DNA of 64,000 nucleotides from NCBI GenBank assembly GCA_964549615.1, contig CAZJVP010000051.1:32001-96000 (forward strand), written 5' to 3'. A program made the position numbers and the translations under genes. The notes under the pieces are model-generated. The model had not been told where the DNA came from. It saw only the letters and a list, made by a program, of their open reading frames with translations, and ran no database searches. This DNA comes from an uncultured Thermococci archaeon (GTDB lineage Archaea; CAYQAE01; CAYVLA01). How positions within the stretch are numbered: the stretch's first letter is position 1; every line of letters starts with the position of its first letter. Below are positions 6,061 to 18,143 of the stretch, piece after piece.

Positions 6061-6157
6061 TGGGCCCGCGGGGAATTGAACCCCGGACCTTTGCCTGGTG
6101 GTACGACCACCATCCGGTTATCAGCCGAACGCTCTAACCAAGCTGAGCCACGGGCCC
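6061..6157 (-). tRNA. tRNA-Ile(GAU) with 22-nt non-canonical insertion (~6093..6114) at the 3' side of the anticodon stem
   Basis: GGGCCCG/CGGGCCC acceptor stem, GCTC/GAGC D-stem, TTCGG-CTGATAA-CCG, T-arm CGGGG-TTCAATT-CCCCG. The insertion contains a perfect TGGTGGT/ACCACCA hairpin. Confidence 0.9.
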
Positions 6158-6849: not shown

Positions 6850-6865
6850 CGCTCAGCAGGTGCCA

Positions 6866-6872
6866 TTTAAGA
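6866..6872 (+). promoter_or_regulatory. TATA box of tRNA-Ala
   Basis: TTTAAGA about 26-32 nt upstream of the tRNA 5' end. Confidence 0.6.
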
Positions 6873-6897
6873 AATGGCCGGAGTCACTTGGCTCGAT

Positions 6898-7027
6898 GGG
6901 CCGATAGCTCAGCCTGGCAGAGCACCGCCTTTGGGAAGGCAGGTTTGCTTCTCGGCGAGCGCAAGGCGGGGGCCGCGGGACAGGCACGATGTCTCGGCCT
7001 GCGCGAATTCAACTCCCGCTCGGTCCA
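6898..7027 (+). tRNA. tRNA-Ala(CGC) with two introns (33/34: 6932..6959; 53/54: 6980..7007)
   Basis: Acceptor stem GGGCCGA/TCGGTCC has the G3-U70 Ala identity pair. Both introns have perfect 4-bp central helices (CGCC/GGCG; CGCG/CGCG) with 3-nt bulges. The spliced product is a 74-nt cloverleaf. Confidence 0.9.
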
Positions 7028-14992: not shown

Positions 14993-15118
14993 TGGGGGGG
15001 CCGGGATTCTCAGAGAAAACCTTGGTTTTCGTCTTTTGAACCCGAGTCGCCGGCTCCCATTCGGCGATTCTAAGCCGGAAGGGTGTCCAAGTTATGGACC
15101 AGACTACCCTACCCCCCC
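14993..15118 (-). tRNA. tRNA-Pro(UGG) with three introns (D-arm ~22/23: 15083..15093; 33/34: 15060..15071; 59/60: 15007..15034)
   Basis: Removing 11, 12 and 28 nt at BHB-type junctions (GTCC/GGAC, CGGC/GCCG, TTCA/TGAG) gives the 75-nt GGGGGGGTAGGGTAGTCTGGTCCATCCTTCCGGCTTTGGGAGCCGGCGACTCGGGTTCAAATCCCGGCCCCCCCA. Confidence 0.92.
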
Positions 15119-18050: not shown

Positions 18051-18143
18051 GCCGAGGTAGCTCAGAGGGAGAGCGCCGGACTGAAGGCCTTCGAACAGGG
18101 GTCCGACATCCGGGTGTCGCGAGTTCGATTCTCGCCCTCGGCA
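18051..18143 (+). tRNA. tRNA-Phe(GAA) with canonical 37/38 intron (18087..18107, 21 nt)
   Basis: GCCGAGG/CCTCGGC acceptor stem, CCGGA-CTGAAG[intron]A-TCCGG, T-arm GCGAG-TTCGATT-CTCGC. Confidence 0.93.

Follow-up and report, generated by a model that had tools for sequence, protein, structure and literature searches.

Multiple-intron tRNA genes with non-canonical BHB introns were reportedly described by Sugahara et al. in 2007 and 2008 and by Marck and Grosjean in 2003. The sections of two reviews that treat multi-intron genes of this kind (PMC4090602, PMC4033280) place them in the Thermoproteales, in other Crenarchaeota and in the Thaumarchaeota. The genome studied here resembles the crenarchaeal and thaumarchaeal systems in having as many as three short introns in a single gene, outside position 37/38, relaxed HBh'/hBH motifs and a broad-specificity EndA, and the 53/54 position found here is among the intron positions named in the relevant part of PMC4090602. 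It differs from them in that the host belongs to a small hot-spring phylum and in that an epsilon-type homolog, not an (alpha-beta)2 endonuclease, is the likely enzyme.

A closer parallel for the enzyme is ARMAN-2 (Candidatus Micrarchaeum acidiphilum). The three-unit epsilon2 EndA of this organism cuts both strict and relaxed motifs in vitro, according to the portions of PMC3239211 and PMC3488258 that deal with its activity. The Tyr-Lys pair in its specificity loop is presented in an excerpt of PMC12397907 as strictly conserved and required for BHL substrates, and a role of the loop also appears in PMC3488258. Within the account that Kaneta 2018 (PMC5829648) gives of these enzymes, epsilon2 EndA is known from Micrarchaeum and Mancarchaeum only. 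A full-length homolog of the epsilon2 enzyme (E 2e-73), with the Tyr-Lys pair conserved, is present in the genome studied here, and T-loop introns occur in it at 53/54 and 59/60, as are described for ARMAN-2 tRNA-Pro(GGG) in passages of Fujishima 2011 (PMC3239211), Hirata 2012 (PMC3488258) and PMC12397907. In contrast to ARMAN-2, the host is not a member of the DPANN, and its genome, of 3.2 Mb, encodes a further EndA with two units; the enzymes here are known from sequence.

A marked rise in disrupted tRNA genes, comparable to that seen here, was described for Hadesarchaea YNP_N21 (Kaneta et al. 2018, PMC5829648, in the part concerned with that genome), and two relatives of the present genome are carried as Candidatus Hadarchaeota in public records. 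The disruption in YNP_N21 is tied in the same part of PMC5829648 to an EndA of the alpha4 type that has an L3 loop, whereas the present genome has the epsilon-type homolog. In split and tri-split tRNAs (Nanoarchaeum equitans tRNA-Glu and Caldivirga maquilingensis tRNA-Gly, as treated in PMC4090602) the piece that carries the anticodon is joined by the BHB machinery, as it would be here. These are, in the coverage of that review, the only documented route from a choice of joining to different anticodons. They are, however, assembled in trans from separate transcripts, whereas the present gene would give one cis transcript, in which each intron has a single supported pair of splice sites. By the taxonomy, the genome belongs to a phylum with just five genomes. 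A look-up of sequencing runs found its DNA in two hot-spring metagenome DNA runs, one of them perhaps its source, and in no RNA run. A literature search on the tRNA introns of this lineage found nothing beyond the main text of Kaneta 2018 (PMC5829648); supplementary intron-position tables were outside its scope. Set against these systems, the gene described below is a new example of an already known sort of disrupted tRNA gene.

The window, by which we mean the whole stretch of 64,000 nucleotides that was analysed, is matched at positions 6898-7027 of the forward strand by the Rfam tRNA model RF00005 (34.0 bits against a gathering score of 29, E 2.2e-5). The match covers model positions 1-71 and treats 31 nt of the anticodon loop and 35 nt of the T loop as insertions; it was recovered in the same place by an Rfam search of the whole genome. 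We read the locus, with a probability of roughly 0.9, as a functional tRNA-Ala(CGC) gene with a 130-nt precursor and two endonuclease-spliced introns of the BHB type. Its parts are as follows.

6898..7027, forward strand: complete tRNA-Ala(CGC) gene, made up of three exons separated by two introns, without an encoded CCA
6898..6931, forward strand: exon 1, with the 5' strand of the acceptor stem (including G3), the D arm, the 5' strand of the anticodon stem (CCGCC), U32 and U33
6932..6959, forward strand: intron 1, 28 nt, at 33/34, with an inner hairpin between 6933-6938 and 6948-6953
6960..6979, forward strand: exon 2, with the anticodon CGC (6960-6962), positions 37-38, the 3' strand of the anticodon stem, the variable loop and the 5' strand of the T stem
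6980..7007, forward strand: intron 2, 28 nt, at 53/54, with CGCG (6974-6977) facing CGCG (7002-7005) and CAGGC facing GCCTG
7008..7027, forward strand: exon 3, with the T loop TTCAACT, the 3' strands of the T stem and of the acceptor stem, U70 and the discriminator A73
6865..6874, forward strand: upstream box ATTTAAGAAA, at -33 to -24 from the mature 5' end

Read in order, the gene begins with GGGCCGA, the D arm, CCGCC and TTTGGGA, and ends with TTCAACT, CCCGC, TCGGTCC and A. The acceptor stem is therefore GGGCCGA/TCGGTCC followed by A73, and contains the G3:U70 pair that had been noticed at the outset. Removal of both introns leaves a cloverleaf of 74 nt, which ARAGORN calls tRNA-Ala(cgc) and in which the mature anticodon loop reads TTCGCAA in this genome. 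The upstream box ATTTAAGAAA is presumably a TATA-like promoter element, judged by the archaeal TATA consensus; the pattern ATTTAAGA(A/G)A stands at an identical distance in all eight distinct orthologs of the gene, with divergent flanks.

Splice sites were defined by a 4-bp central helix H, a 3-nt bulge on the 3' side of each of its strands and a cut after the second base of each bulge. For intron 1 the central helix is formed by CGCC (6926-6929) and GGCG (6954-6957), with 4/4 pairs and the bulges TT/T and AG/C (the slash marks the cut); the inner helix has 6 bp (GGGAAG/CTTCTC) and the outer helix h has 1 bp. The GGCG at the 3' end of this intron imitates the 3' strand of the anticodon stem. 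For intron 2 the central helix is CGCG/CGCG, again with 4/4 pairs, the bulges are GG/A and AA/T, the inner helix has 5 bp and the outer helix has 0 bp. In the strict hBHBh' motif, the substrate of alpha4 and alpha'2 enzymes, the 3' bulge is closed by an outer helix h with 2 bp or more; in all eight distinct orthologs there is 1 bp at intron 1 and 0 bp at intron 2. Both motifs are of the relaxed HBh'/BHL type, and since the outer helix is missing in both, neither is a perfect hBHBh'. The second intron had been put forward as a perfect BHB: its position and its complete central helix stand, while the word perfect does not. In the canonical intron geometry, as set out in the part of Yoshihisa 2014 (PMC4090602) devoted to it, the first two bases of the anticodon lie inside the 4-bp helix, an arrangement with which the cut rule used here is consistent.

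All loosely BHB-like site pairs in the precursor were listed (51 candidates) and every combination of them was tried. One combination alone gives a cloverleaf, with introns at gene positions 35-62 and 83-110 and the anticodon CGC. The cut rule had been calibrated on ten other genes of the genome, in which the outer helix is the anticodon stem; it produced correct 7-nt loops at their 37/38 introns, and in the present gene it restores U54 in the T loop. The preliminary description had placed the first intron at 33/34 on the CGCC/GGCG helix with these same bulges and had concluded that only splicing creates the anticodon. The motif is present where it was said to be, and the single cloverleaf solution, with its loop TTCGCAA, bears out both statements, the second in the sense that the anticodon would be joined to U33 only through splicing. 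Folding energies do not discriminate between the forms of the precursor: the minimum free energy of the single strand, -62 kcal/mol (z -1.54), belongs to a structure other than a cloverleaf, and the energies computed for the BHB conformer and the mature-like conformer are -37 and -32.7. A scan for bacterial promoters and terminators, which is not applicable to archaea, marked a 'terminator' that is the region of the anticodon stem and intron; it was rejected.

The whole gene, introns included, is present in all three of the genomes from the same family (91, 82 and 80% identity), and a search of 37 other genomes found no full-length copy. A metagenome scan with a pattern for the 3' end returned 21 contigs, six with the Ala(CGC) gene and the remaining 15 with tRNA-Ala(GGC)-type genes, or fragments, that have a homologous 53/54 intron. 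A contig pattern scan covered 80 loci of 99 matches: 78 were archaeal tRNA-Thr genes or bacterial tRNAs with no relation to this gene, and the other two were relatives that had been found before. In the genome from the sister family no ortholog of the Ala(CGC) gene was identified, the best match to the 5' exon being a tRNA-Lys(UUU) with a long intron. The resulting ortholog set comprises ten copies with eight distinct sequences, all from close relatives, in at least three genera.

Among the eight distinct sequences the central helix H has 4/4 pairs at both introns without exception. The inner helix of intron 1 varies from 3 to 6 bp, with changes on both sides at three pairs, and that of intron 2 from 4 to 6 bp, with one pair altered on both sides; intron 1 itself is 21-28 nt long. 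In a MAFFT alignment of the eight sequences 98.2% of the cells pair, compared with 28-46% when the partners are slid. None of 500 shuffles reached the covariation score, a count whose significance is overstated by the kinship of the sequences and which is not a probability. Exon 1 is invariant except at two D-loop positions. In every ortholog CGC follows directly after GGCGA(G/A), and in-silico splicing gives a mature loop TTCGC(A/G)(A/C), with an NGC anticodon, U33 and a purine at 37; G3:U70 (alignment columns 3/132) and A73 are likewise constant. The third base of the 5' bulge is T in five sequences and A in three, and that of the 3' bulge is C in all eight. This pattern is to be expected if the former base belongs to the intron and the latter is C34.

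The tRNA-Ala(GGC) genes of the three family relatives contain a canonical intron together with one at 53/54. The latter, seen in these three relatives and in the 15 metagenome contigs, is homologous to intron 2 of the Ala(CGC) gene, with which it has a CGCG/CGCG helix and a GCGCGAA end in common. From the sequences, the 53/54 intron would either be older than the split of the Ala isoacceptors or have been copied between Ala(CGC) and Ala(GGC).

An intron-less Ala(UGC) gene lies on another contig of the genome (C46:760-832). The genome was scanned for G3:U70, giving 57 raw hits, of which two have a T loop, namely Ala(UGC) and the gene at 6898-7027; the latter is thus the only Ala(CGC) candidate. 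This answers the question, raised in the preliminary description, of whether separate Ala genes exist: one does for UGC, and no second Ala(CGC) appears among the G3:U70 hits with a T loop. Among the Ala codons GCG ranks second in use, with 27.7 per 1000 codons over 740 long ORFs. Neither BLAST with the genes of relatives nor the G3:U70 scan found Ala(GGC) in the 104-contig assembly. Since that gene is present in all three family relatives, its absence is likely to reflect an assembly gap. The Pro genes of the genome, and two further genes with an apparent intron inside the anticodon, are listed below.

Contig C67, 3-94, reverse strand: tRNA-Pro(GGG), intron provisionally at 32/33
Contig C88: tRNA-Pro(CGG), read by eye
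Window 14993..15118, reverse strand: tRNA-Pro(UGG), introns at 22/23 (11 nt), 33/34 (12 nt) and 59/60 (28 nt)
Contig C11, 757-853, reverse strand: tRNA-Val(UAC), intron at 34/35, inside the anticodon, provisional
Contig C12, 7511-7617, forward strand: tRNA-Glu(UUC), intron at 34/35, inside the anticodon, provisional

The tRNA-Pro(UGG) gene in the window was missed by Rfam (E<=1) and by ARAGORN; the BHB solver followed by ARAGORN gives tRNA-Pro(tgg) as its product. Its 33/34 intron is built like intron 1 of the Ala(CGC) gene. A box TTTTTATA is located about 35 nt upstream of it.

Across the whole genome Rfam finds 35 tRNA genes. The solver reads ten of these as intron-less and most of the others as having one to three introns, and at least eight further multi-intron tRNA genes were found by hand. 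Other introns at 53/54 occur in the His and Gln genes, and at 59/60 in Gly(GCC) and Pro(UGG). The Ala(CGC) gene is typical of the tRNA genes of its genome. The BHB solver is home-made, and the intron positions given for the other genes are provisional; for the neighbouring tRNA-Ile (window 6061-6157) it wrongly gave a class-II 'Thr', and it returned no solution for Ser(GGA), a Leu, Asp, Pro(CGG) or a gene of 171 nt on contig C43. The tRNA-Ile gene (reverse strand, anticodon GAU) has, by Rfam alignment, a 23-nt insertion in the variable region. At window positions 18051-18143 (forward strand) ARAGORN assigns the label tRNA-Leu(aag), and removal of a 21-nt canonical intron gives tRNA-Phe(GAA). 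The 171-nt tRNA-like gene on contig C43 (6530-6718, reverse strand) has several insertions, the sequence GGGCTCCAG and a long insert with GATGAG; by these features it may be a tRNA-Trp(CCA) with a box C/D-type intron.

Standard tools do not give the Ala reading. ARAGORN in its default mode misses the gene and finds two other tRNA genes alone in the window, and Rfam at the gathering threshold over the whole window finds the same two other genes only. With introns allowed (-i), ARAGORN calls tRNA-Pro(tgg) i(40,37), in line with the unspliced anticodon loop, which reads TT-TGG-GA. The gene might on these grounds be a tRNA-Pro(UGG) in which a canonical intron follows position 37 and a further intron lies in the T loop, but the sequence makes this extremely improbable. 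The central helix at 37/38 has only 2/4 pairs and there is no inner helix, and no combination of introns leads to a UGG cloverleaf. The G3:U70 wobble pair is a determinant for AlaRS, whereas the three Pro tRNAs of the genome have G3:C70. The mature sequence has 61/74 positions in common with the Ala(UGC) of this genome and 59/74 with the Ala(GGC) of a relative, but only 47-48/74 with Pro(UGG) and Pro(GGG). We assign the identity as Ala because of G3:U70 and A73 and because the body is closer to the Ala isoacceptors than to Pro. The Pro family is moreover complete without this gene, since Pro(GGG) and Pro(CGG) are encoded elsewhere, and so is Pro(UGG), by the three-intron gene listed above. The unspliced 'anticodon' is TGG in only two of the eight distinct orthologs (TGA in three and AGG in three), so that the Pro look is a chance product of the first bases of intron 1 in this genome. 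The preliminary description was therefore right in naming tRNA-Ala(CGC) and not Pro(UGG), as the ARAGORN call on the spliced product, the G3:U70 pair and the similarity to the isoacceptors agree. What it called a disguise as tRNA-Pro(UGG) is real in the TT-TGG-G loop and in the -i miscall and fortuitous in origin. Misannotation of non-canonical introns as canonical is frequent, and 54 such cases were corrected by tRNAscan-SE 2.0, by the figures in the pertinent section of PMC8450103.

It had further been suggested that alternative splicing could alter decoding, either by a shift of one base that gives Ala(UGC) or by cleavage at 37/38 that gives an Ala-charged reader of UGG. The arithmetic works in this genome, where TTT followed by GCAAGG would yield a UUUGCAA loop, and a choice of anticodon on a common tRNA half is known from split tRNAs, as related in the passage of PMC4090602 on these molecules. 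The suggestion nevertheless finds no support in the sites or in their products, and we hold it to be hardly credible. The register-shifted site and the 37/38 site each have 2/4 pairs in the central helix and lack flanking helices. The shift would give AGC in three of the eight orthologs and there is no TGG in six of them, so neither alternative product is conserved. Ala(UGC) is already encoded by a gene that has no intron, and an Ala-charged Pro decoder would lead to missense incorporation. The enzyme is portrayed, in the structural passages of PMC12397907 and PMC4090602, as a 'molecular ruler' with a fixed spacing of its active sites and a symmetric model of the BHB. Since the anticodon would reach U33 only on ligation, a decoding switch at 33/34 can be imagined, in which minor or regulated cuts at neighbouring sites by one EndA paralog give Ala(UGC) or the Ala-charged UGG reader; it would tune or recode translation if true, and its chance of being so is minute. 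The low Rfam score (34 bits) and the failure of default tools could also point to a decaying, non-functional tRNA copy from which the insertions are never removed. This is very unlikely, if a shade less so than the readings just discussed: in the eight distinct orthologs the exons are nearly invariant and the intron helices are kept by compensatory changes, the promoter box is conserved, the gene is the sole Ala(CGC) candidate in a genome that is 99.5% complete, and comparable introns occur in most tRNA genes of that genome. A functional, constitutively spliced tRNA-Ala(CGC) gene thus remains the reading that we prefer.

The components for such splicing are encoded in the genome. Two EndA genes were found (PF01974 and PF02778), together with RtcB (607 bits).

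Contig C90, 41466-42674, reverse strand: epsilon-type EndA homolog, 403 aa (PDB 4FZ2, E 2e-73)
Contig C88, 58691-59872, reverse strand: second EndA, two-unit, 393 aa, C-terminal unit nearest to 3P1Z/3AJV (E about 1e-43)

Residues 29-403 of the first protein align with 22-387 of PDB 4FZ2, the epsilon2 EndA of ARMAN-2, collinearly and over the full length, and its KYKQ aligns with TYKV of the 4FZ2 specificity loop, which places the Tyr-Lys pair in register. Full-length homologs of the epsilon type occur in the three family relatives and in two small genomes of other families, and are absent from the sister family. Given the range that Kaneta 2018 (PMC5829648) states for epsilon2, a host of an epsilon-type EndA outside the DPANN may be new. 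The C-terminal unit of the second protein is most like the catalytic subunits of crenarchaeal enzymes.

The mechanism is that of the known BHB/EndA/RtcB pathway. In outline, the gene would be transcribed as a precursor of 130 nt with its two BHB-type introns. At the first, nucleotides 28-31 would pair with the intronic GGCG to form the 4-bp central helix, with the hairpin of the intron as the inner helix, and each of the two bulges would be cleaved after its second base, so that the intron is excised from between U33 and C34. The second, which lies between G53 and U54, would be handled by a motif of like construction on CGCG/CGCG. As neither motif has the outer helix, a broad-specificity endonuclease is needed; an enzyme of strict specificity would not cut them. 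The candidates are the epsilon-type homolog and the two-unit EndA, and RtcB would ligate the exons. The predicted product is a 74-nt tRNA with the loop UUCGCAA, G3:U70 and A73; AlaRS would charge it, and it would decode GCG. Splicing would be constitutive, and the UGG of the unspliced form accidental.

For annotation, the consequence is that the tRNA set of this genome is unreadable by default tools, ARAGORN misnaming the Ala(CGC) gene and several others. A miscall of the present gene produces a false absence of Ala(CGC) together with a duplicate Pro(UGG), and so invites false claims of codon reassignment. For the biology of these introns, the gene provides a well-conserved case of an intron directly before the anticodon, with a central helix formed by an intronic mimic of the anticodon stem. 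Its source is a barely sampled group from hot springs, which combines heavy disruption of its tRNA genes with an epsilon-type endonuclease homolog. As a broader reading, of the same minute probability as the decoding switch, an epsilon-type endonuclease in a small hot-spring phylum outside the DPANN may have led to an invasion of positions 32-35 by introns in at least five tRNAs; if this is true, several anticodon loops of the genome come into being only by splicing.
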